Source: Bryobacterales bacterium (lineage in GTDB: Bacteria > Acidobacteriota > Terriglobia > Bryobacterales > UBA6623). From it: DNA of 64,000 nucleotides. The stretch's first letter is position 1, and every line of letters begins with the position of its first letter. Made by a program: the position numbers and the translations under genes. The notes beneath the pieces were generated by a model, which was not told the origin of the DNA, did not search any database, and saw only the letters and a list, made by a program, of their open reading frames with translations. The stretch lies in assembly GCA_965226385.1 (NCBI GenBank), contig OZ245359.1, positions 3,090,545 to 3,154,544 of the forward strand, written 5' to 3'. Below, in pieces: positions 12,383-43,670 of the stretch.

Positions 12383-14713
12383 CTATTCCGGCAGGGCGAA
12401 GGCGATGATATTGAAGCCCGCCGCGACCGCCACATACTGCCTTCCTCCAGCCAAGTAGGTCATTGGCGACGCTCTCCAGCGGTCATTGGTGTAGAAGTGC
12501 CAGAGCAGTTCGCCGCTGCTGGCGTCGGCAGCAGTGAAGGTTCCGTTGCCGTCTCCGTAGAAGACGATGCCCCCGTCGGTGGAGAGCACTCCGGTCCAGG
12601 GGCGGCGAGGAGACCCGTGAGGGCGGTCCCAGACGATCTCGCCCGTTTCCAGCTGGATCGCTCGCACGGAACTCACTACGAGCTCGCTCGGAACGGCTCG
12701 CGCTGCGCCACCGAAGAACCCCTTGCCGCGTTGCCACCTCTCATCCCGCTTCGTGAAGATGTTGCACTGCTCAACCGTCTGCACGTAGACAAGTCCCGTA
12801 CCCGGGCTATAGGAAGGCGACATCCAGTTCGTCGCCCCCGCCAGCGAGGGGCAGACTTCGTTTCCGCCGTATGTCGGCTCCTTGCCCGGCAGTTTCTGCG
12901 GGCGGCCGTCGGGTCCGATCCCGGTTGCCCAGGTCATCTTCTCGACGAAGGGCTTGGCCAGCAGTACCTCTCCGTTGGTTCGGTCGAGCACATAGAAAAA
13001 GCCGTTGCGATTGGCGTGGACCAGCAGCTTGCGCGGACTTCCCTGGAACTCGGCGTCGACCAGCATGGGCGTTTGGTTGGCGTCCCAGTCGTAAAGGTCG
13101 TGCGGCGTGTATTGATAGTGCCAGCGCAGCTTGCCCGTGCTGGGCTCGATCGCGAGAATCGAGTCGCTGTAAAGGTTGTCGCCCTGGCGTTCGTCGCCGT
13201 TCATGTCGGGGCAAGGGTTGCCGGTCGGCCAGTAAAGCAGATCGAGCTCCGGATCGTAGGTTCCGGTCAGCCAAGTGCCGGCGCACCCGTGCGGCAGGAC
13301 GCTTCCCACCCAGGTATCCGACAATGGCTCACCGGGCAGCGGCACGGTCCAAAAGCGCCAGGCTTCTTCGCCGGTGGCGGCTTTGTAGGCCGCGAGGAAG
13401 CCGCGAATGCCTTCGTCGCCGCCGCTCACTCCAGCAATGACCAGGTCGTTGACCACCAGCGGCGCGAGCGTGCCACCGTAGTTGTCGCGGTGGTCAGCCA
13501 TTTCGGTTTCCCACAACAGGTGGCCTGTGAGACGGTCGATCGCGATGAGATTAGCGTTGTCGGTGACGATGAATACCCGGTCGCCCAGGATTGCTGCACC
13601 GCGGTTCGTGCCCGAACCGGCGTCGCCCATCACGCCTTCGGTGCGCGGCCGGCTGTAGCTCCACATCTCGCGGCCCACTCGCGCGTCCAGGGCGCGCACC
13701 TCGTTGGGCGCGGTGACGTACATGATGCCGTCGACAACGATGGGCGTGGTCTCGAGCCCGCGCGTCGAGCGCATCGGGAAGATCCATGCGGGGGCTAGTT
13801 TCCCCACATTCTGGGTCTTGATCTCGTCGAGCGAGCTGTGGCGGTTGCCATGGAGCCGGCCGTTATAGGTCGGCCAGTCGCCCGCGCTAGGACTCCGGAT
13901 GCTCGCGAACTGCACGGTCCCGGGAAGCTCTTTCTGCGCGCGGATGTAGCGCGCTTGCAGAGCGTTGCCGGGCCGGCCGTCAAGGCGACTGAGGTACGCG
14001 ATCAAATCATCGAACCCGGCACCGTTGAATCGCGGCATCGAGGACCCGGGCGCGGGAGCCAGTTCGGTGATCTGGTCTCGGGAGAGCAGCCGCCAGCTTC
14101 CATCGACCGCTTGAAGCTGCATGTCGTGGGCGCTTTGATTTCGCACGAAGCCGTGGATCTGCTCGCCGTCCCTGAGCTTCACCTCGACTTGCTGGTAAGC
14201 CTGGGCGATTTCCGCATTGGGTTCCCTGAGGTCGCTTTCAAGCTCGCCCAACGTGCGGCTCGCCCCCACCGACGAGAGATCGGGCCCGACCAGACCGCTT
14301 CCGCCACGGACGTGGCAGGCGTGGCAATTGGCGTTTCCGAAGAAGAGCTCCTCGCCTGCCGCGGGGTCGCCTTGAGGTGCGGTCTCGCTAGCGGGCGCGG
14401 TTTGCGCGCGATAGAAAGTCACTAGCGCGGTCGTTTCGCCTTCCGGAAGGGAGAAACCGGGCATGCCGACGTCAGGCAAGCCATCACGGATTAGCTCGCG
14501 GACCTCTTCGGCGCTACGGTTTCGGGCTGAGCGCGTGGTGATTATGTCCGGACCACGCTCGCCCCCGCGGCCATCGCCTCCGTGGCAGCCCCCGCAGCGC
14601 AGTTCGAAATGCTTGCGTCCTTCGGCTATGAGCTGGATGGTGTGCTGCGGCGCGCTTTGAGCCGCGGCGGCGGGTAGGAACAATAGCAGCGGAAGCAATT
14701 GAAGAGGTTTCAT
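12383..14713 (-). CDS. PQQ-dependent (quinoprotein) dehydrogenase with two N-terminal cytochrome c domains
   Basis: 776 aa with a signal peptide. Heme motifs CGGCH and CHACH come first, followed by DWPTYNG...TPIVVDGIMYV and repeated W-containing beta-propeller blades typical of the methanol/ethanol PQQ dehydrogenase family. Confidence 0.9.
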   Translation of the reverse strand: MKPLQLLPLLLFLPAAAAQSAPQHTIQLIAEGRKHFELRCGGCHGGDGRGGERGPDIITTRSARNRSAEEVRELIRDGLPDVGMPGFSLPEGETTALVTFYRAQTAPASETAPQGDPAAGEELFFGNANCHACHVRGGSGLVGPDLSSVGASRTLGELESDLREPNAEIAQAYQQVEVKLRDGEQIHGFVRNQSAHDMQLQAVDGSWRLLSRDQITELAPAPGSSMPRFNGAGFDDLIAYLSRLDGRPGNALQARYIRAQKELPGTVQFASIRSPSAGDWPTYNGRLHGNRHSSLDEIKTQNVGKLAPAWIFPMRSTRGLETTPIVVDGIMYVTAPNEVRALDARVGREMWSYSRPRTEGVMGDAGSGTNRGAAILGDRVFIVTDNANLIAIDRLTGHLLWETEMADHRDNYGGTLAPLVVNDLVIAGVSGGDEGIRGFLAAYKAATGEEAWRFWTVPLPGEPLSDTWVGSVLPHGCAGTWLTGTYDPELDLLYWPTGNPCPDMNGDERQGDNLYSDSILAIEPSTGKLRWHYQYTPHDLYDWDANQTPMLVDAEFQGSPRKLLVHANRNGFFYVLDRTNGEVLLAKPFVEKMTWATGIGPDGRPQKLPGKEPTYGGNEVCPSLAGATNWMSPSYSPGTGLVYVQTVEQCNIFTKRDERWQRGKGFFGGAARAVPSELVVSSVRAIQLETGEIVWDRPHGSPRRPWTGVLSTDGGIVFYGDGNGTFTAADASSGELLWHFYTNDRWRASPMTYLAGGRQYVAVAAGFNIIAFALPE

Positions 14714-34254: not shown

Positions 34255-34331
34255 TGGCGCGCCCGGGAGGATTCGAACCCCCGGCCTTCTGGTCCGTAGC
34301 CAGACGCTCTATCCAGCTGAGCTACGAGCGC
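34255..34331 (-). tRNA. tRNA-Arg (anticodon ACG), CCA encoded
   Basis: The reverse complement is GCGCTCG-TA-GCTC-AGCTGGATA-GAGC-G-TCTGG-CTACGGA-CCAGA-AGGCC-GGGGG-TTCGAAT-CCTCC-CGGGCGC-G-CCA. It folds as a cloverleaf with anticodon loop CU-ACG-GA. Confidence 0.95.
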
Positions 34332-34540: not shown

Positions 34541-35728
34541 ATGCGAGAAGCAGTTATCGTTGACTCACTCCGAACACCCCTTGCCAAGTCATTTCGGGGC
34601 TCATTGAACCTGACGCGTCCAGATGACCAGGTAGCACACTGTATTAAAAGTGTTCTCGACAAGTATCCACAGATTGATCGCAATGAAATCGGTGACCTGA
34701 TTCTTGGATGTGGGCAACCTCATGGTGCGTCTGGGCACAATGTGGCTCGTATTTCTGCCTTGCTTGCTGGATTGCCTTCCACGGTTGGAGGAACCACAGT
34801 TAACCGATTCTGTTCTTCGGGTCTCCAGGCAGTTGCCATGGCAGCGCACCAGGTAATCATGGAGGGTGAAGATGTAATGCTTGCAGGCGGTGTGGAGTCC
34901 ATCACTATGATGTCTCCGGACAAGTCACCTCATCCAGAACTCAAGGAATCCAACCCTGGTGTCTATATGGTCATGGGAGTCACAGCGGAGGTTGTTGCCA
35001 GGCGGTATAACATCTCGCGGGACGCCCAGGATGAATACGCCCTGCAAAGCCAGCAACGGACAGCTGCTGCCCAGCATGAGGGGTTCTTTGGAGAAGAACT
35101 GGCACCTATGAACGTCAAGAGAGGGAAAATCGACAAGGAGACCAGATCCATTGTCGGTACTGAGGATCATGTCCTGACTGCTGATGAGTGCAACCGGCCC
35201 GGTACAACACTGCAAGCTCTTGCTTCCCTGCCACCTTATTTTGATCCTGATTCTGGCAAGGGTTCGGTTACTGCAGGGAACTCTTCCCAACTCTCGGATG
35301 GAGCTTCCATCACTCTGGTCATGTCCCGGCAACGTGCAGAGGAGTTATCCGTTCCCTACAAGCTTGTTTTTCGTGGCTTCAGCACATCCGGGTGTGAGCC
35401 CGCCGAGATGGGCATCGGTCCGGTCTACGCCGTTCCGAAGCTTTTGAAAAACAACTCCATTGGTGTTAGTGACATTGATCTCTGGGAACTCAATGAAGCA
35501 TTCGCTGTCCAGGTCGTTTATTGCAGAGACAAACTGGGAATCCCGAATGATTGCCTGAATGTGAATGGTGGTTCGATATCAATTGGTCATCCATTTGGAA
35601 TGACTGGTTCACGAATGGTTGGAACGATTGCCAACGAGATGAAACGTCGAAAATCCAGTTTGGGAGTTGTGACGATGTGCGTTGGTGGTGGGCAGGGCGC
35701 GGCCGGACTTTTTGAAGGTGCTTGGTAG
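34541..35728 (+). CDS. Acetyl-CoA C-acyltransferase (thiolase)
   Basis: 395 aa. VNRFCSSGLQAV holds the active-site Cys. NEAFA, the C-terminal GGSISIGHPFGMTG and the CVGGGQG blocks are also present. Confidence 0.9.
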   Translation: MREAVIVDSLRTPLAKSFRGSLNLTRPDDQVAHCIKSVLDKYPQIDRNEIGDLILGCGQPHGASGHNVARISALLAGLPSTVGGTTVNRFCSSGLQAVAMAAHQVIMEGEDVMLAGGVESITMMSPDKSPHPELKESNPGVYMVMGVTAEVVARRYNISRDAQDEYALQSQQRTAAAQHEGFFGEELAPMNVKRGKIDKETRSIVGTEDHVLTADECNRPGTTLQALASLPPYFDPDSGKGSVTAGNSSQLSDGASITLVMSRQRAEELSVPYKLVFRGFSTSGCEPAEMGIGPVYAVPKLLKNNSIGVSDIDLWELNEAFAVQVVYCRDKLGIPNDCLNVNGGSISIGHPFGMTGSRMVGTIANEMKRRKSSLGVVTMCVGGGQGAAGLFEGAW

Positions 35729-35814: not shown

Positions 35815-36330
35815 TCAGAGCTTGCTGCAAGCGCTGGCTGCTCCAGCCGGGTCTATGGCGTCACCGCCTGTTTCGACATGGGCAATATTTCCATCCTTGC
35901 CTATGACGTAGGTTGTCCGGCCAGACATCATGCGTTCTTCCATCAGGTTGTCGTAAGCCCGTGACACAGCGCCATCTGTATCACTGAGAATGGCAAACTC
36001 CAGGTTCAGCGATGCGGCGAATTCCTTGTTGGTTTGAAGTGGGTCGGTACTGATTCCGAATACAACGGAGTCCGAACCGGTGAAATCTGAGATACCAGCC
36101 TGGTATCCCTGCATCTCGCGCGTTCAACCACCTGTAAAGGCTTTCGGGAAAAAGGCCAGAACAACATTATTCTTGCCTCGAAACGAGGACAAGGTAGTGT
36201 TCTTGCCATCGGTACCGGGTAGAGTGAAATCGGGTGCTTCCTCTCCCATGGAAAGGGCAGCTACGGCACTGCCAGCCGATGCAGCGGCTACACCGCTCAG
36301 AAGGATTTGTCTTCTTGAGAAAAGTCTCAT
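35815..36330 (-). CDS. Tat-signal peroxiredoxin (BCP/AhpC-TSA fold) with in-frame UGA at the peroxidatic Cys position; candidate selenoprotein
   Basis: Track ORFs 36124..36330 and 35815..36114 share a frame. Joined, they read [10 protein letters not shown]...[13 protein letters not shown]-[TGA 36124-36126][10 protein letters not shown]...GISTD...ILSD. The N-terminus is [24 protein letters not shown]. Confidence 0.7.
36089..36109 (-). promoter_or_regulatory. Hairpin 14 nt downstream of the in-frame UGA (SECIS-like candidate)
   Basis: The mRNA reads GGGAUACCA-GGC-UGGUAUCUC. This is a 9-bp stem including one G-U pair, or 8 bp with an AGGCU loop, and the apex is G-rich. Confidence 0.4.
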
Positions 36331-36899
36331 TGGGTTCTCCGTTGACAGGCCATAGGCATCCTGTTAACCATGCCTTGGAATAATTCTAGCAGGGTGGTTG
36401 CCTGCTGGGTTCAGTTTGCTCAGTCTCAAGCAACAAAATACGCTATGAAGTTGAGTTGTTAAAGGCGCATATTAACAGTGGGTAGAGCAACGAACAGGTA
36501 ATCCAGCTTGTATGTTATGCCTGAAGCGCGTTTTTGATTTTCGATCAAGTCTTTTGTGGCCAGTGAGCCGCAGCCATACCCGAACAGGAGATAAACGGGA
36601 ACGTGCCCCTGGGAACTATGGGCTCCTGAACATTCTGGGGCGGTCACTGACTCAGGACAGCGACTGATGTGGGGAGGGGGTGCGCAAGTTACGGGACGTG
36701 GATGTTTGGGGCAGCGTGTAGCCTGAGCTGCGAGGGATGCATGACGTCATGCAGTACCAGCTGAGTGGCCCGCTTTAACTCCTCGCCCTCGCCAAAAGTG
36801 CTAGCCCGGAAATCTCACCAATGGGTTGAGAATGAGCCTTTAAATCGTGTATAGTATCTTTGTTATCAGTATCTTACACTGATTTCGAAGGGAGGGTTC

Positions 36900-37847
36900 A
36901 TGAAAGCAGGGTGCGCGGCGCAGAAGTTGCAATTCGAGGCGCACGGCAAGCGCGACGTGGTCGCGGATTTCGATGGTGGGAGGATGACGTCGGACGGCGG
37001 GGGATTGCTGCTGCGCGAAGCGAACTGCTGCTTGGGCGACCTGATGGCGCGGCTGCGGACGGCGGACCGGGACGCCTCCGACGGCAGCGTGGAGGAGCTG
37101 GAGCGCATCGTGGGACGGATCCGGGAGCGCTGGCCGGCGACCCGCATCCGCATCCGCGCGGACGCGGGGTTCTGCCGCGACGGGATCCTGAGCTGGTGCG
37201 AAGCCAATGCGGTGGGCTACGTGCTCGGGCTGGCTCGCAACCCGGTGCTGACTCGGCGCTTACGCCACGCCATGCGCCGTGCGCGGCGGTGCTGCTGGCA
37301 GACCGGCGAGGCGGTGCGCCGCTTCCGCCAGTTCCGCTATCGCACGCACAGCTCGTGGAGCCGCAAGCGGCGCGTGATCGGCAAGGCCGAGCACCTGCGG
37401 CAGGGCGCCAATCCGCGCTTCGTGGTGACCAACCTGGAACTCTCCGAAATCCAGTCGCCGCAGCGGCTGTACGAGCAGGTCTACTGCGCCCGCGGCGAGA
37501 TGGAGAACCGCATCAAGGAGCAGCAGCTGTGTCTGTTCGCCGACCGCACCAGCAGCGCGACGATGCGCGCTAACCAGCTGCGCCTGTACCTGTCAACCTT
37601 TGCCTACGTGCTGATGAACACCGTGCGGGAGGTGGGCCTGGCCGGCACGGCCATGGCCAAGGCGCAATGCTCCACCATCCGCCTCAAGCTGTTCAAGATC
37701 GCCGCCGTGATCCGCATCACCACGCGCAAGGTGTGGCTGTCGCTTTCCTCCGTCCACCCCTTCCAGCACCTCTATGCGACCGCGCTGCGCAATCTGCGGC
37801 CCCCCCCCCCCCCCCCCCCCCCCCGCATGCCAATGGCATTCGTTTAA
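36900..37847 (+). pseudogene. IS1380-family DDE transposase, internally deleted and 3' disrupted
   Basis: VADFDGGRMTSDGGGLLLRE and YCARGEMENRIKEQQLCLFADRTS are IS1380 hallmarks. The sequence jumps from LLLRE... directly to ...ARLR..DAS.GSVEELERIV, losing roughly the central third compared with full-length family members as I recall them. The C-terminus runs into the poly-C tract and the nested IS. Confidence 0.75.
37800..37824. repeat. Homopolymer C(25)
   Basis: Counted directly: c at 37800 plus 24 c at 37801-37824. It lies 6 bp (gcatgc) from the left inverted repeat of the nested IS. Confidence 0.95.
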
Positions 37848-37913
37848 CGGCCAAACAGCATTCGTTTAAGGGTTCAAGGGGAATTCCGGCGCAGCGGGCC
37901 GGTTTTTCGCGCT

Positions 37914-39074
37914 TCAGGCTGTGGTTGCAGTTGCGGTTGCCTTGCTGGACCTCCATTTGCTGGCGGGTTTCCGGGAGAGGCGCGGGAAGGAGCGGTTCGG
38001 GCGCTGTCGCTGGCGGCACGCGGCGATGCCGGCGAGGATCCGTTCGACGGTCTTGCCCAGCATGGCGGCGTGCTCCAGGAACAGCCCTTCCAGGTGCCGC
38101 GCCACGGTGCGCAGGCTGCTCTTGAAGTTCGCCTGCATCGCCGGCTGGCCCGGGTCGGCCCGGAAGCTCTCCTCGCTGCGGTTGGTGAACAGCCGGGCCA
38201 GGGCGATCAGGCTGAAGTGGGCGAACAGCTCCTGCTGGACCGTGCGCTCGGTCTGGCCGTGGAACTCCTCCACCGTCAGCAGTTGCTTGGAAATCTTGTA
38301 CAGCTCCTCGATGCTCCAGCGGCCGTGGTACAGGTCGGCGAGGTCCCGCACGCTGTAGCGCTGCCGGTCCAGCAGGGTGGTGGCGAGGGTGTAGGTGGTT
38401 GTGCCGACGGTGTACTTGATGAGGCGCACCCGGCAGGGCTGGAAGGCGGCCTGCGGGTGCTGGCGCAGTACGTCGGCGCTGGGCGTGACGGTGACCGTGT
38501 GATCGGTGCGGTCGCCGAGGATGAAGTCGCGGAACAGGGCGGAGGCGTTCCGCTGGAGGCGGAAGACGGCCTGCAGGCGGCGTTCGGCGTGGGCGTGCAG
38601 CAGCTGGAAGGAGTAGTAACCGCGGTCGTAGACGACGACATCGCCGGGGGCGAGCGCCCGGAGGTGGGCCAGGGCCGCCAGGCGCTCGTTGCCATGGGCG
38701 AGCAGGTCGAAGTCGACCGGGATGCGGGAGCGCAGCTGGTAGAGGCAGCTGAGCAGGCCCTGCGGGTAGTGGGCGTTCGATGAGGGCGTGCGGTAGCCCT
38801 CTTGGGCCAGCGGGCGGGGCAGGTTCAGCTTCGAGCCGTCGACGGCGAAGATCCGGTGGCCGTGCCACAGTTGGCCAGCCGTCTCCCGCGGGGCTTGCTC
38901 GAGAATCGCCCGGTGGATACGCCGGAACACGTCGGCGTGAATCTTGGCGCGGGCCACGCAGATTGACGAGGCCGATACCGGCTGAGGCTGCGGCAGCGCG
39001 ACCCCCAGCCGGCGGCACTGCTCCCACAGCTCGGCCAGGGTCAGGGCATAGCCCTGGCGGTCGGGCGCGAACAC
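37914..39074 (-). CDS. IS4-family DDE transposase
   Basis: 386 aa. IFAVDGSKLNLP and VVVYDRGYYSF (DDE aspartates) are present, together with YHGRWSIEELYKISK, which fits the IS4 Y-2-R-3-E-6-K signature. GTG start. Confidence 0.85.
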   Translation of the reverse strand: MFAPDRQGYALTLAELWEQCRRLGVALPQPQPVSASSICVARAKIHADVFRRIHRAILEQAPRETAGQLWHGHRIFAVDGSKLNLPRPLAQEGYRTPSSNAHYPQGLLSCLYQLRSRIPVDFDLLAHGNERLAALAHLRALAPGDVVVYDRGYYSFQLLHAHAERRLQAVFRLQRNASALFRDFILGDRTDHTVTVTPSADVLRQHPQAAFQPCRVRLIKYTVGTTTYTLATTLLDRQRYSVRDLADLYHGRWSIEELYKISKQLLTVEEFHGQTERTVQQELFAHFSLIALARLFTNRSEESFRADPGQPAMQANFKSSLRTVARHLEGLFLEHAAMLGKTVERILAGIAACRQRQRPNRSFPRLSRKPASKWRSSKATATATTA

Positions 39075-39940
39075 CAGTCGGGGTGCAGCGGGTAGACGTA
39101 CACGCCCTTGGGTGTCTTGGCCGGTGCCGTTCCCCTGGCCTTGCGCCCCTTCGTCATGCCGAGGAACTGCCAGTTGGCCGCCCGGTAGCAGGTCGCCCGG
39201 TAGCGCTCCAGGTCAACGAAGGTTTCCACCAGCACCGGCCGGTAGCCGTGCCGCTGCTGCCAGTCCTGCGGCAGCTGCTGCAGCGCCAACCCCAGCGCCT
39301 TCGACGCCAGGAACTTGACCTGCACCCAAGGAAACAAAAGGAACCGGCTGTTGCTGATGACCAGGTCGAGGTGCTTGCGGTGCGCCTGGCCCTGCCAGCC
39401 GATCCAGGTGTCGCGGCACTCCAGGTTGCGGGTGGCGAAGCCGAACAGCAGGCAGCCGAGCTGGCGCCCGTGTCGGTCGCGCAGGAAGTAGCGCAGATGC
39501 GCGCCGATGGGCTGGCGGTAGCCCTGGGGATGGTAGCGCTCGACCCATTCGTTCCACTCCGCGACAGCCTCCCGCTCGGTCACCGCCTCCAGGGCTAGCG
39601 GCGTCAGCTCGGCGAGATCCTCGCGGAGAGGGGGCTGGGGCGCGGTCCGCTCGCCCGGCGTGATCGGCCTCTGCGGGCCCCGCCCGGGCCTAGCGCTGCG
39701 GGCTGGCAGGGTCAGGATGCCGAGCCGCTCCAGCTCCTCAAGCAGGCGCGTCGCCAGATGAATGCGGTTGCTGCCCTTCGGCGTCTGCCAGCGCAGGTGC
39801 TCGCAGATGGTGTGGCCCAGCTCGGTGCGGCTCAGCTTCGGGAACAGCCCCACGGTCTCCTGGATGTCGGCGATCTGCCGCCGTGTCAGGCGCTTGCCGA
39901 AGAATGTCGTGGATTTAAGGTTCTCGATCAGCGGGTCCAT
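39041..39940 (-). CDS. DUF4338-like protein (domain family of Druantia DruA), first ORF of the IS4-like element
   Basis: RYHPQGYRQPIGAHLRYFL..., NSRFLLFPWVQV, HGYRPVLVETFVD..RYRATCYRAANW and KGVYVYPL match DUF4338 blocks as I remember them. It overlaps the transposase ORF by 34 nt in another frame. Confidence 0.65.
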   Translation of the reverse strand: MDPLIENLKSTTFFGKRLTRRQIADIQETVGLFPKLSRTELGHTICEHLRWQTPKGSNRIHLATRLLEELERLGILTLPARSARPGRGPQRPITPGERTAPQPPLREDLAELTPLALEAVTEREAVAEWNEWVERYHPQGYRQPIGAHLRYFLRDRHGRQLGCLLFGFATRNLECRDTWIGWQGQAHRKHLDLVISNSRFLLFPWVQVKFLASKALGLALQQLPQDWQQRHGYRPVLVETFVDLERYRATCYRAANWQFLGMTKGRKARGTAPAKTPKGVYVYPLHPDWCSRPTARAMP

Positions 39941-40328: not shown

Positions 40329-43300
40329 TCAGAACATGTACTTCAACCCGAGCTGGACGATTCTCGGGCTCCCTGCGCTCGTGATCCTGCCGAACCGGCT
40401 GGACACAAAGGTCCGCTGTGGGCTACCCAGATTAACGTTGTTGAACATATTGAAAAACTCAGCGCGAAACTGAAGCCTGTGTCTTTCTGAAAGATTAATT
40501 TGTTTCTGCAGACTCACGTCCACTTTGAAATCCCCGGGGGCGTGAATGAAGTTCCGCGGGGTGGTGCCGAACGTACCGAGTGGATTCAGAGTGAAGGCAT
40601 CGGTGTTGAAGTACTCTTGAATAATCTGGGCTCGAGGCCGATCAGATGGCAAAAGAGGATTGATACCGGTGAGCATATCCGGCCGATCGTCGTTGGTGCC
40701 TGCAAGTGATCGATCTCTCCCGGTTCGGATTCTGATCGGGACCCCACTTTGCCAGGTCCAGATGCCGGCGAGGCTCCAGCCACCCGCCACGTGCCTCATC
40801 AACGCGTTTTGACCCGCGAGCCTCGGTAGGTCCCATATGAACGACTGCCGGAAGTTGTGTGGCACGTGGTAGGCGGACAATCCTCGGTTCGCGCTTCGGT
40901 CAAACGGATTGTGAGGTTGATTAAATTGAGGATCCCGGGAGTCCTGATCGATGGACTTGGAAAAGGTGTAGAACGCCAGGAACGACAGATTGTCCCGATA
41001 TCGCTTTTCCAAGCTTATCTGCAACGAGTGGTACGTCGAGAAGTAGTCATGGCCAAGCTGGGTCAGCGAGGCGAAATCGGGATACAGCGGGCGTCGTGTG
41101 TTCGTGTTTCCGAGGGTCGCTCCAGCCCCGAAGATGGCCGGGTTAAGCTGGTCGGTACTGACGAGTCGCGTGCCCTTAGAGCCCACGTAGGCCGTTCGCA
41201 ACAGGAGATCTGTTACCAGCTGTCGCTCGATCGCAAGATTCCACTGCTGGATGTAGCCGGTCTTGAAGTTTGGATGAATCGTGAAACTGTTCCCGGTTGC
41301 GAAGGTTACGTCGGATGGCGGAGTGTAGGGAGCAAAGGCCTCCGGGAAGGGATCTTGTACAGCTGCGGACCCATACGGATCCATGAAATCCACACTCCGA
41401 AGTTCAAACGACGGAGAGAACGGCGCTGCTTCGACAAAGTTGTTGTACATGACGCCGGGAAGCCGCGAGAAGAAGACACCATAACCTCCCCGAACGCTTG
41501 TCCGATTCTTCCCGTCGACGTTCCAGGCAAATCCAAACCGTGGAGCTAGATTCAGTAGATTGCTGTTCGTGCCAGCCTCCGGGAAGTTGCTATCACCGGC
41601 AAAAACAAGGCCGGGCGGAGCATTCCCAAATCGCTCCGACTGAAGTCCCGGACGAAAACCGGTGACTTGGCCGAGTCCGTCGGTGTAGGGCCACCAGGGG
41701 TCCCAACGCAGTCCGAAATTAAGGCTGAAGTCACGGGCGACATTAAACTTGTCCTGGACGTACAAGCTCATCTCGAAACCTCGCATGTCCTTGGCTTTGC
41801 CACCGCTCTGCCGGAAGCGCGCCACTCTACCGGTCAGGAAATCTGCGAAACCATCGCCGGTTGCACTACCGCTGAAAGCAATACTGGGGGCTTGGCGATA
41901 ACCAGTGTTCGACTCGAACTTGATCCGGGGAACAAACTCTGCCCCGAACTGAATCGAGTGCTTTCCCGTGATGTAGCTGACCGTGTTCGAGAATTCGTGA
42001 TTCTGCCGGATCCAGTTGCTGCCCGGAGGTCCGGAGCCGCTGCCCCAACCGCTATATCCGGTGATCCCGAGCAAGAGTGCGCGGCGCTCAGGTGCAGTCG
42101 ACGCGACCTTGACGCCAAAATCCGTAAGGTCGAATGGTGTCGTCCGAATGTTGAATGAGTCGAGGAACAGTGATTTGGCAATAAACGTATTGACAAGGTT
42201 AGGGGACGCAGTCAAGGTGTATCGACCAGTGAAGCTCTTGGTCGTCTGCAGCTGAGCCATTCTCGAGTTGAGAAGGGTATTCTCCCCGTCCCAGCCATCC
42301 CTCGTGTGCCGGACATAGAAAAAGCTTCCCGAGATCATATGGGGCCCACGATTGTAGTCCAGTTTGCCCAGGTACTGGTTATTGCTACGGTCATCTGGAC
42401 GAGCAAACAAAATTTTCCCATCCGGGGTCTGAGGCGGCGGCAAGAATCCAAGGAGATCCACACTGGCGGGCGCAAAGAGTTCCTCCGGTACCCGGTTGTT
42501 AGGGAACAATTCTCCGGTGAACGGGTCTTTCAGTTGTTTCTTTAGTGCCGAAAAGTCTCCTTGGCGCATCTCCAGCGAGGGCACAAAAGCCGTGTTTGCC
42601 AGGGAAGTGTTCTTGATCCGAAATCCCTGGTAGCTGCCGAAGAAGAACAACTTGTTAGTGAGTACGGGTCCTCCGAAAGTGGCTCCAAACTGGTTGCGCT
42701 TCAGATTGTCGTGTGCTGGAGCGAAGAAGTTGCGTGCATTCATGCTTCCGTTGCGCAGGAACTCGAACGCCGATCCGTGGTGCTCGTTGGTTCCGGACTT
42801 GGTGACGACGTTGACGATGGCTCCAGCGGAGTTGCCGTATTCGGCATTGTAGTTGTTTGTCTGAACACTGAACTCCTGGATGGCGTCCGGGTTGGGGAAG
42901 ATCGCGTTGTTGCGCCAGATGACATCCGAGTGAGTGCCGCCATCGAGCTTGTAGCCCACCTCGCTCCCTCGCGCTCCATTCGCCGAGATCGCCAGCGCCT
43001 CGTCGGTATTGGCATAGCCAGCCCTGCTGGTCCTCACCCCGGTGACAATGCCAGGAACAAGGTAAACCAGCGAGGCAACATTGCGGCCATTGAGTGGAAG
43101 GTCTTCCACTGCCCGCGTATTGACGATCTGGCTCAGAGTGCCAGATTCCGTTGCTGTCATGGGGGCTTCGGAGGTCACGGTGACCACCTCAGTAATCTCG
43201 CCAACCGAAAGCTCCACGTTGAGGCTGTGTGTGGTATCGACGTTCAGAGTGATACCCGTCTGTCGATAGGTTGCAAAGCCGGGCGCGCTGGCCTCTAAAC

Positions 43301-43556
43301 TGTAACTCCCAATGGGCAGGAGGGTAAGGAGGAACCTCCCGTTTGCACCGGTCGTAGTGGTCCTTGTGAACTGCGTGCCGAGATTCGTGACAGTTACCGA
43401 GGCAGCTGGCACGACGGCACCCGAGCTGTCGGTAACTGTGCCGGCCAGTGATGCAGTTGGAGCCACCTGGGCCAAGGCGGATCCGCTGCAGAGTATCACC
43501 ACAGCCAGGAGCCTCAGACGGGCTCTTAGTTTTCCCGATGTTCTGTTCATATTCAT
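40329..43556 (-). CDS. TonB-dependent receptor-like outer-membrane protein with N-terminal carboxypeptidase-regulatory-like domain
   Basis: The start is taken at MNMNRTSGKLRARLRLLAVVILCSGSALAQ (signal peptide). LAGTVTDSSGAVVPAASVTVTN...TTTTGANGRFLL..LPIGSYSL is CarboxypepD_reg-like. A long beta-barrel follows, ending in ...QLGLKYMF. This architecture is common in Acidobacteriota. Confidence 0.85.
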   Translation of the reverse strand: MNMNRTSGKLRARLRLLAVVILCSGSALAQVAPTASLAGTVTDSSGAVVPAASVTVTNLGTQFTRTTTTGANGRFLLTLLPIGSYSLEASAPGFATYRQTGITLNVDTTHSLNVELSVGEITEVVTVTSEAPMTATESGTLSQIVNTRAVEDLPLNGRNVASLVYLVPGIVTGVRTSRAGYANTDEALAISANGARGSEVGYKLDGGTHSDVIWRNNAIFPNPDAIQEFSVQTNNYNAEYGNSAGAIVNVVTKSGTNEHHGSAFEFLRNGSMNARNFFAPAHDNLKRNQFGATFGGPVLTNKLFFFGSYQGFRIKNTSLANTAFVPSLEMRQGDFSALKKQLKDPFTGELFPNNRVPEELFAPASVDLLGFLPPPQTPDGKILFARPDDRSNNQYLGKLDYNRGPHMISGSFFYVRHTRDGWDGENTLLNSRMAQLQTTKSFTGRYTLTASPNLVNTFIAKSLFLDSFNIRTTPFDLTDFGVKVASTAPERRALLLGITGYSGWGSGSGPPGSNWIRQNHEFSNTVSYITGKHSIQFGAEFVPRIKFESNTGYRQAPSIAFSGSATGDGFADFLTGRVARFRQSGGKAKDMRGFEMSLYVQDKFNVARDFSLNFGLRWDPWWPYTDGLGQVTGFRPGLQSERFGNAPPGLVFAGDSNFPEAGTNSNLLNLAPRFGFAWNVDGKNRTSVRGGYGVFFSRLPGVMYNNFVEAAPFSPSFELRSVDFMDPYGSAAVQDPFPEAFAPYTPPSDVTFATGNSFTIHPNFKTGYIQQWNLAIERQLVTDLLLRTAYVGSKGTRLVSTDQLNPAIFGAGATLGNTNTRRPLYPDFASLTQLGHDYFSTYHSLQISLEKRYRDNLSFLAFYTFSKSIDQDSRDPQFNQPHNPFDRSANRGLSAYHVPHNFRQSFIWDLPRLAGQNALMRHVAGGWSLAGIWTWQSGVPIRIRTGRDRSLAGTNDDRPDMLTGINPLLPSDRPRAQIIQEYFNTDAFTLNPLGTFGTTPRNFIHAPGDFKVDVSLQKQINLSERHRLQFRAEFFNMFNNVNLGSPQRTFVSSRFGRITSAGSPRIVQLGLKYMF

Positions 43557-43670
43557 GACCTGACTCCTTCGTTGCCTACGATCTAACAACTTGTAGATCT
43601 TACCCGTATATATAGCAGCATACTTTCTTGATTTTGTCAAGCAGTAATTCTCAATTTCTCAATTGGGTGC

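Follow-up and report, generated by a model that had tools for sequence, protein, structure and literature searches.

A peroxiredoxin gene of a Bryobacterales bacterium with an in-frame UGA that probably encodes a selenocysteine at the catalytic position

We analyzed a 64,000-nucleotide stretch of DNA from a Bryobacterales bacterium of the phylum Acidobacteriota (assembly GCA_965226385.1, contig OZ245359.1, positions 3,090,545 to 3,154,544), which we refer to as the window, and in it two adjacent open reading frames that encode the two halves of a peroxiredoxin (Prx) and are separated by an in-frame TGA codon. We conclude that both frames constitute one gene for a Prx, probably an exported one, that uses selenocysteine (Sec) as its peroxidatic residue, and we put the probability that this is a genuine Sec-decoded gene at roughly 0.88. 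This conclusion rests on the location of the UGA at the catalytic column of the family, on the conservation of the UGA among independent assemblies and distant homologs, on purifying selection on both sides of it, and on a conserved hairpin immediately downstream that has the features of a bacterial Sec insertion sequence (SECIS). All positions given below are in window numbering and the gene lies on the minus strand.

Two open reading frames form a single peroxiredoxin gene

The first frame runs from 36330 to 36124 (68 aa followed by TGA) and the second from 36114 to 35815 (99 aa). They are in the same reading frame, and the gap between them consists of the TGA at 36126..36124 and the three codons ACG CGC GAG, an arrangement that was described in an initial annotation of this DNA and that is present exactly as it was reported. 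When the TGA is read as a sense codon, which removes the only interruption, the joined product comprises 171 codons (35815..36330, with the terminal TGA at 35817..35815) and ends in AASACSKL. With Cys substituted for the stop, this product gives one uninterrupted match to Pfam AhpC-TSA (PF00578) that spans residues 28-151 and profile positions 1-123 of 124 (E = 2e-33, 115.4 bits against a cutoff of 26), in agreement with the earlier proposal of a single complete Prx across the stop. A match to Redoxin (PF08534) was also obtained (88.4 bits, 5e-25).

The active-site motif of the joined product reads P62-K-A-F-T66-G-G-U69, where the UGA at 36124..36126 supplies U69, the peroxidatic residue of the P62-x-x-x-T66-x-x-U69 pattern. 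The initial annotation had assigned the UGA to the catalytic column, and this assignment is borne out both by alignment with Cys homologs (alignment A2) and by alignment with solved peroxiredoxins. P62, T66, position 69 and R138 are invariant in A2. Arg138 (codon 35917..35919, in the context G-R-T-T-Y-V-I) is presumably the conserved active-site arginine known from peroxiredoxins. The only other Cys is Cys168 (codon 35827..35829), which is located in the A-C-S-K-L C-terminus and is likewise invariant in A2; a Cys in an A-C-S-K/R-L tail is found in 83 of 83 unique homolog C-termini. Cys168 is the likely resolving residue.

Among solved structures, the closest are those of a Prx-like protein (PDB 2ywn/4g2e) and of Mycobacterium tuberculosis AhpE, Rv2238c (1xvw, 1xxu, 4x0x, 5id2), both with E values of about 1e-20. 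The catalytic Cys of their AFTQVC and AFTGIC motifs falls in the same column as U69. The alignments extend over the whole Prx domain and the FFP-AFTG-C motif is common to both sides. In contrast to the window protein these are Cys enzymes, and the alignments start at their chain residues 2-11, whereas the window protein has 24-26 additional residues at its N-terminus. AhpE is described as a 1-Cys Prx, which also distinguishes it from the window family with its invariant C-terminal Cys.

The in-frame UGA is conserved and both halves of the gene are under selection

Two kinds of match emerged from a search of 5.8 billion proteins. The first kind comprises full-length Cys homologs with 55-60% identity, and the second comprises five clusters of proteins of exactly 99 aa, 75-99% identical, that start at the Met three codons past the stop. 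At every locus of the second kind, the DNA upstream of the 99-aa homolog encodes an AhpC-TSA fragment of 68-79 aa that ends in TGA. These loci also share synteny, with the ffh-rpsP-KH-rimM-trmD-rplS operon on one side and a convergent thiolase gene and a tRNA-Arg gene on the other. The exact 99-aa product of the window occurs on 13 contigs. Eight of these are listed, from separate ENA and NCBI assemblies that include long-read and short-read data, and TGA is present in all eight while the full gene is identical in five. The presence of TGA in independent assemblies excludes a sequencing error.

We also scanned one genome per species with the family alignment as the query. The 80 loci returned are nearly all from metagenome-assembled genomes of Acidobacteriota, either Bryobacterales or other members of the phylum. 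This distribution speaks against a planctomycete origin, which PSCyt, PSD1 and DUF1501 genes in the neighborhood might suggest. Across all fetched loci and the window, the codon at the catalytic column is TGA in 53 cases, TGC in 31 and TGT in 4; wherever this column holds a sense codon, it is one for Cys. Removal of duplicates left 48 Sec forms (TGA) and 35 Cys forms (TGC or TGT), with the TGA homologs reaching down to about 50% protein identity. Comparison of the window gene with seven Sec-form relatives gave proportions of nonsynonymous differences (pN) of 0.09-0.17 and of synonymous differences (pS) of 0.53-0.85, both before and after the TGA. Because pN is far below pS on both sides, we conclude that both halves are translated in this frame and are under strong purifying selection. 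The initial annotation had argued against a chance nonsense mutation, and the independent assemblies, the 48 TGA homologs and the purifying selection all bear this out.

As a side observation, the residues that follow the catalytic position vary with the form of the gene in alignments A2 and A3. The window-clade Sec forms read U-T-R-E with CGC as the codon after Thr, and the Cys forms and more distant Sec forms read C/U-T-K-E with AAG.

A conserved hairpin downstream of the UGA resembles a bacterial SECIS element

The hairpin GGGAUACCA-GGC-UGGUAUCUC is located at 36109..36089, 14 nt past the UGA, which is where the initial annotation had placed a 9-bp hairpin. In the 9-bp stem, 36109..36101 pair with 36097..36089, and the apical loop GGC occupies 36100..36098, so that the spacing from UGA to loop is 23 nt. 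The predicted folding energy is -11.6 to -12.3 kcal/mol. A published consensus model of bacterial SECIS (bSECIS) elements specifies a loop of 3-9 nt, an upper stem of 4-16 bp, a G in the first two loop positions, a distance of 16-37 nt from the UGA and a minimum free energy of -7.5 kcal/mol or lower (PMC13188914). The window hairpin lies within every one of these bounds (3-nt loop GGC, 9-bp stem, 23-nt spacing, about -12 kcal/mol), and its pattern occurs once in the window versus 0.09 occurrences expected.

All 48 Sec forms contain UAC/UAU-CAG-GCU-GGU/GAU-A at a fixed distance past the UGA. At stem pair 33/41 of alignment A3, 33 of them have C:G and the other 15 have U:A, with no broken pair among them, and the U:A state of this pair costs a Gly-to-Asp replacement in the protein. 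Neither the observed covariation score nor the observed share of paired cells was reached in any of 500 column shuffles. The lower stem, as read from A3, varies by clade yet stays pairable (GGGAU/AUCUC, CGGAU/AUCC, or GGCG-U/A-U-CGCC with a bulge), a variation that a count of pairs in fixed register does not capture. The hairpin is kept by every TGA form and lacking in the Cys forms, apart from three loci described below: the mean hairpin energy over positions +13..+45 is -10.1 kcal/mol in the Sec forms versus -5.0 kcal/mol in the Cys forms (Mann-Whitney p = 1.3e-10). Synonymous sites are frozen only in the Sec forms, where CAG is used in 48/48, GCT in 44/48 and a third-position T in GGT/GAT in 48/48, while the same sites are scattered in the Cys forms. 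The covariation, the contrast between Sec and Cys forms, the fixation of synonymous sites and the agreement with the published bSECIS model together support the earlier proposal that this hairpin is a SECIS element, a function that is predicted from sequence comparison.

Three loci with TGC at the catalytic codon (L056, L062 and L069) retain a UACCAGGCUGGUA hairpin with energies of -9.3 to -12.0 kcal/mol at about +13..+45 nt past the TGC. These hairpins look like fossil SECIS elements left by a recent replacement of Sec with Cys.

Like the SECIS elements of E. coli fdhF and fdnG, which operate with SelB, the window hairpin is located inside the open reading frame just 3' of the UGA, its small apical loop opens with G residues, and its spacing agrees with the 16-37 nt that the consensus model allows (PMC13188914). 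The two differ in that there is no sequence similarity between them, that the window clade has a continuous 9-bp stem with a 3-nt GGC loop, and that the element described here is a predicted one. The continuous stem also sets the window clade apart from distant clades, in which A3 reveals a bulge on the 3' arm. Folding of the window sequence also predicted an extended lower stem that pairs with the UGA itself; the bases opposite the UGA in this stem lack conservation across A3, and this extension is thus specific to the window.

The N-terminus has the features of a signal peptide with twin arginines

By comparison with cytosolic AhpE and 2ywn, the Prx domain starts at about residue 26-28 and is preceded by 24 residues. 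These 24 residues (36259..36330) are a predicted cleavable signal peptide that is followed by the residues AL. It contains the sequence SRRQIL at residues 5-10, with R6-R7 encoded at 36315..36310; S5-R-R-Q-I-L-L is succeeded by an h-region rich in Ala, Gly and Ser and by A22-V-A24, an AxA cleavage site that precedes the mature domain. All members of the window clade retain S/T-R-R, and in many of them the c-region contains a basic residue. Where the consensus has F after RRx, these sequences have I, V or A. A more distant clade of mostly Bryobacteraceae-labelled sequences, which are soil relatives, has ordinary Leu-rich signal peptides of the general secretory type, and both signal-peptide clades contain Sec and Cys forms. 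The hydrophobicity of the h-region is 2.19 in the RR-type sequences versus 2.52 in the non-RR homologs (p = 2e-5). Profile matches of the N-terminus are mostly to models of twin-arginine translocation (Tat) signals, namely PF10518, TIGR02811 and UCR_Fe-S_N, all of them below threshold.

From these features we consider it probable that the Prx is exported, and we lean towards Tat as its predicted route. Selenoproteins exported by Tat are known, namely the catalytic subunits FdnG and FdoG of E. coli formate dehydrogenases N and O. These subunits also combine a twin-arginine signal peptide with an internal Sec UGA, so that Sec insertion and folding precede export. Unlike the predicted cargo here, which is a small thiol/selenol peroxidase with no cofactor, FdnG and FdoG are large molybdoenzymes in which cofactor loading explains the use of Tat.

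Results that weigh against a Tat-exported selenoprotein

Several results count against this interpretation of the gene. In the window, tblastn with E. coli SelA, SelB and SelD found no selA, selB or selD and ARAGORN found no tRNA-Sec, reporting only a tRNA-Arg; the initial annotation had already commented on the absence of selA, selB, selC and selD from the window. When the hairpin alone was compared with shuffled sequences, its excess stability was only moderate (z = -1.9, with 7 of 200 shuffles equally stable), and its significance thus rests on the comparative data described above. Rfam returned no match at gathering thresholds and a chance miRNA match at relaxed thresholds, which is weak evidence as the library has no model for this element. 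Regarding export, the Pfam TAT_signal model (PF10518) gave 11.4 bits for the window protein and 12.9-16.3 bits for clade members, below its cutoff of 22.7. Finally, E. coli TatA and TatC had no tblastn match in the window or the fetched loci, a search of about 2 Mb of scattered DNA that is uninformative.

In favor of Sec decoding, on the other hand, parts of the Sec machinery occur in related metagenome-assembled genomes. Over the window and all loci, the only true match to SelA, SelB or SelD is a SelD in locus L053 (10478-11578, minus strand). This selD gene directly adjoins a Cys-form Prx gene and is convergent with it. In locus L042 a tRNA-Sec gene (13040-13136, plus strand) is located 2.5 kb downstream of a Cys-form Prx gene, after hfq-hflX-pgsA. 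Both proximities may be coincidental. An apparent SelB match in L038 is LepA/EF4. An apparent SelA match in L062 (13066-14580, minus strand) is a 504-aa SelA-like pyridoxal phosphate (PLP) protein that matches E. coli SelA over only 73 residues around the PLP region and is not a Sec synthase; this protein has an RR-containing N-terminus of its own (MNRRDMFRGAL...). In the literature, the supplements of Zhang et al. 2006 (PMC1794560) record SelA, SelB and two Sec-containing FdhA proteins for Solibacter usitatus, and the same survey gives 4 selenoproteins in 3 families for Acidobacteria.

Alternative explanations

The alternative that survives best accepts a genuine Sec-containing Prx and differs only in the route, with the protein leaving by the general secretory pathway or with the N-terminus serving as a membrane anchor. 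We regard this as unlikely but worth serious attention. It would account for TAT_signal scores of 11-16 bits against a cutoff of 22.7, for the I, V or A that takes the place of the consensus F after RRx, and for the plain general secretory signal peptides of the sister clade. Against it stand the twin arginines in every window-clade sequence, the predominance of Tat-signal models among the N-terminal profile matches, the Ala/Gly-rich h-region that is significantly less hydrophobic than in the non-RR homologs, the basic c-region residue in many clade members and the presence of the AxA site. With regard to the twin-arginine export proposed in the initial annotation, the motif and its low-hydrophobicity h-region hold up across the clade, while the TAT_signal score does not reach its cutoff.

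A very improbable alternative is that the UGA is decoded as a standard amino acid and involves no selenium, either through codon reassignment (genetic codes 4 and 25, for instance, assign it to Trp or Gly) or through near-cognate read-through to Cys or Trp. UGA read-through by tRNA-Trp or tRNA-Cys is known in bacteria, and one public protein entry, P0003, has W at the Sec position, both of which would fit this explanation. However, the DNA of P0003 (locus L009, 320-322) carries TGA, and its W is therefore an artefact of a translation table in which TGA is Trp. Among 41 long open frames in the window, TGA is the main stop codon (23, compared with 11 TAG and 7 TAA), which indicates that this genome uses the standard code. 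Decoding as another amino acid is further opposed by the restriction of sense codons at this column to Cys, and by the conserved hairpin with its GG loop at SECIS spacing, which is a requirement of SelB-dependent decoding.

We give still less credence to a split Prx, in which translation would stop at the TGA and restart at the ATG at 36114..36112 to yield two polypeptides that assemble. This ATG is 9 nt after the TGA and is the start used by gene callers. However, the Met that it encodes is an ordinary conserved residue of the family, specified by ATG in 33 of the 35 Cys forms, and 8 of the 48 Sec forms have no start codon at the site but instead ATC, CTC, TTC or ATA. The product of such a split gene would also be without its catalytic residue, and neither the Sec/Cys column nor the hairpin that tracks the TGA would be explained. 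Least probable of all, and in effect refuted, is a Prx inactivated or misread through a pseudogene, a chance nonsense mutation or an erroneous TGA in place of TGC or TGT. In its favor, gene callers split the gene into 68-aa and 99-aa frames and the window has no Sec machinery. Against it, the TGA recurs in 8/8 listed contigs of independent long-read and short-read assemblies and in 48 distinct homologs, the most divergent of which share about 50% protein identity; pN stays far lower than pS beyond the stop, and the hairpin is co-conserved with a compensatory change.

Relation to known selenoproteins and evolution of the family

Decoding of the UGA as Sec would place the window protein in a known class. 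The family named Peroxiredoxin (Prx), defined by PF00578/COG1225 and a TxxU motif, is an established bacterial selenoprotein family, as the initial annotation had pointed out and as published surveys affirm. Its prototype, PrxU of Eubacterium acidaminophilum, is cited as experimentally verified (Sohling et al. 2001, cited in PMC13188914 and PMC9312934). Known Sec-containing members numbered 12 in 2006 and 91 in 78 organisms in 2016, with 253 in GOS metagenomes. Cys orthologs are common in this family and switching between Sec and Cys is frequent (PMC1794560 Table 1).

The window protein and PrxU have in common the AhpC/TSA fold family, Sec in place of the peroxidatic Cys in PxxxTxxU, and a bSECIS hairpin directly downstream in the coding region. 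They differ in that the window protein starts with a signal peptide, has a C-terminal Cys that is invariant and belongs to another subfamily. The NCBIfam equivalog model for PrxU (NF040737) gave 46.2 bits, below its cutoff of 270; the window protein is not an ortholog of PrxU. The equivalog model for BCP, a thioredoxin-dependent thiol peroxidase (NF006960), gave 75.1 bits, also below its cutoff of 140. E. coli Bcp is related to the window protein but is not its ortholog, and the window protein has no Cys at the fifth residue past the catalytic one. All NCBIfam models stay below their cutoffs on the window protein. The window protein is a member of a different subfamily, AhpE/BCP-like, that occurs mainly in the Acidobacteriota order Bryobacterales.

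None of the 285 selenoproteins catalogued in 2006 contains the motif FTGGUT, and a literature search on periplasmic or signal-peptide-bearing selenoprotein peroxiredoxins found no relevant paper. The selenoprotein class itself is already known, and what is new here is the lineage (Bryobacterales), the subfamily, the signal peptide and the hairpin common to the Sec clades.

In a neighbor-joining tree of the family, Sec and Cys forms are intermingled, and parsimony requires at least 8 switches between them. One hairpin sequence is common to all Sec clades, and a fossil of it survives at three Cys loci. Sec therefore looks like the ancestral state of the family, repeatedly replaced by Cys. Two loci contain tandem paralogs about 700 nt apart, one with TGA and the other with TGC at the catalytic codon (L036, 10001-11230; L065, 10001-11300). 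Such a pair looks like a set of Sec and Cys isoenzymes, the Cys form possibly being a backup for selenium limitation.

Proposed mechanism

Based on the established bacterial Sec pathway, we propose that SelB-GTP carrying Sec-tRNA(Sec) would be tethered to the GG-containing apical loop, 23 nt downstream of the UGA at 36126..36124. Sec would then be delivered in competition with release factor 2, which would allow translation to run on through the 102 downstream codons. Directed by the 24-residue signal peptide with its conserved twin arginines, the folded protein would probably cross the cytoplasmic membrane by Tat. The expected chemistry is that the U69 selenolate would reduce peroxide and be converted to a selenenic acid, which the invariant Cys168 may resolve to form a selenenylsulfide. 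This selenenylsulfide would in turn be recycled by an extracytoplasmic thiol-disulfide reductant.

Genomic surroundings

A Shine-Dalgarno-like GGAGAA (36335..36340, minus strand) is located 4 nt upstream of the ATG at 36330 and may serve as its ribosome binding site. A weak sigma-70-like promoter match, TTAACA-16-TATTTT (36435..36462, minus strand), was found by a consensus scan with 9/12 matching positions about 105 nt upstream of the start codon.

On the downstream side, the tRNA-Arg(ACG) gene (34255-34331, minus strand) and the thiolase gene (34541-35728, plus strand) are conserved neighbors of the Prx gene in most window-clade loci. The ffh-rpsP-rimM-trmD-rplS operon is located about 0.2-1 kb upstream of the Prx gene in most related loci and about 5 kb upstream in L001; in the window it is displaced by inserted DNA. 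Directly upstream of the window Prx gene is a DDE_Tnp_1_4 transposase frame (36900-37847, plus strand) that covers only profile positions 183-432 of 435 and is probably truncated. The near-identical strain represented by L001 has no transposase among the called genes near its Prx gene, and in L092 the position of the window transposase is occupied by an IS3-type element (HTH_Tnp_1/rve). The upstream intergenic region thus seems to be a strain-variable insertion site.

Farther upstream, at 37720-39940 (minus strand), a protein of 299 aa with a match to the Druantia DruA family (E = 5e-32) adjoins a 436-aa frame with no Pfam match. This region, which separates the insertion sequence from a TonB-type outer-membrane protein (40332-43640), is possibly a mobile island or one for anti-phage defence. 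We also considered whether the window encodes a second selenoprotein. Of 52 split-frame TGA candidates, those that were checked against Pfam were separate genes, for example a DUF1501 gene beside an SDR gene, and none was convincing.

Implications

A more far-reaching interpretation, which we offer tentatively, is that these genes are the first recognised lineage of extracytoplasmic Sec peroxiredoxins. According to this proposal an ancient Sec-containing family of Acidobacteriota would have undergone repeated Sec-to-Cys replacement, and one clade would have switched from a general secretory to a Tat signal, with the effect that only the full-length folded selenoprotein would be exported and could enter a periplasmic selenenylsulfide relay through its C-terminal Cys. 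If the clade did switch to Tat, UGA-terminated products would fail Tat proofreading.

The finding does not overturn current understanding. With regard to annotation, all genomes examined have the gene split in two by gene callers and public annotation, and the subfamily is not captured by any NCBIfam model, so that a whole selenoprotein subfamily is missed in a major phylum of soils and sediments; a dedicated profile HMM with a Sec column would fix this. With regard to evolution, about 50 Sec forms and 35 Cys forms interleaved on one tree are an unusually clean natural experiment on the retention of Sec versus its replacement. For the cell biology of these bacteria, the gene points to a selenium-dependent peroxide defence outside the cytoplasm and raises the question of how a selenoprotein would be exported and re-reduced there.

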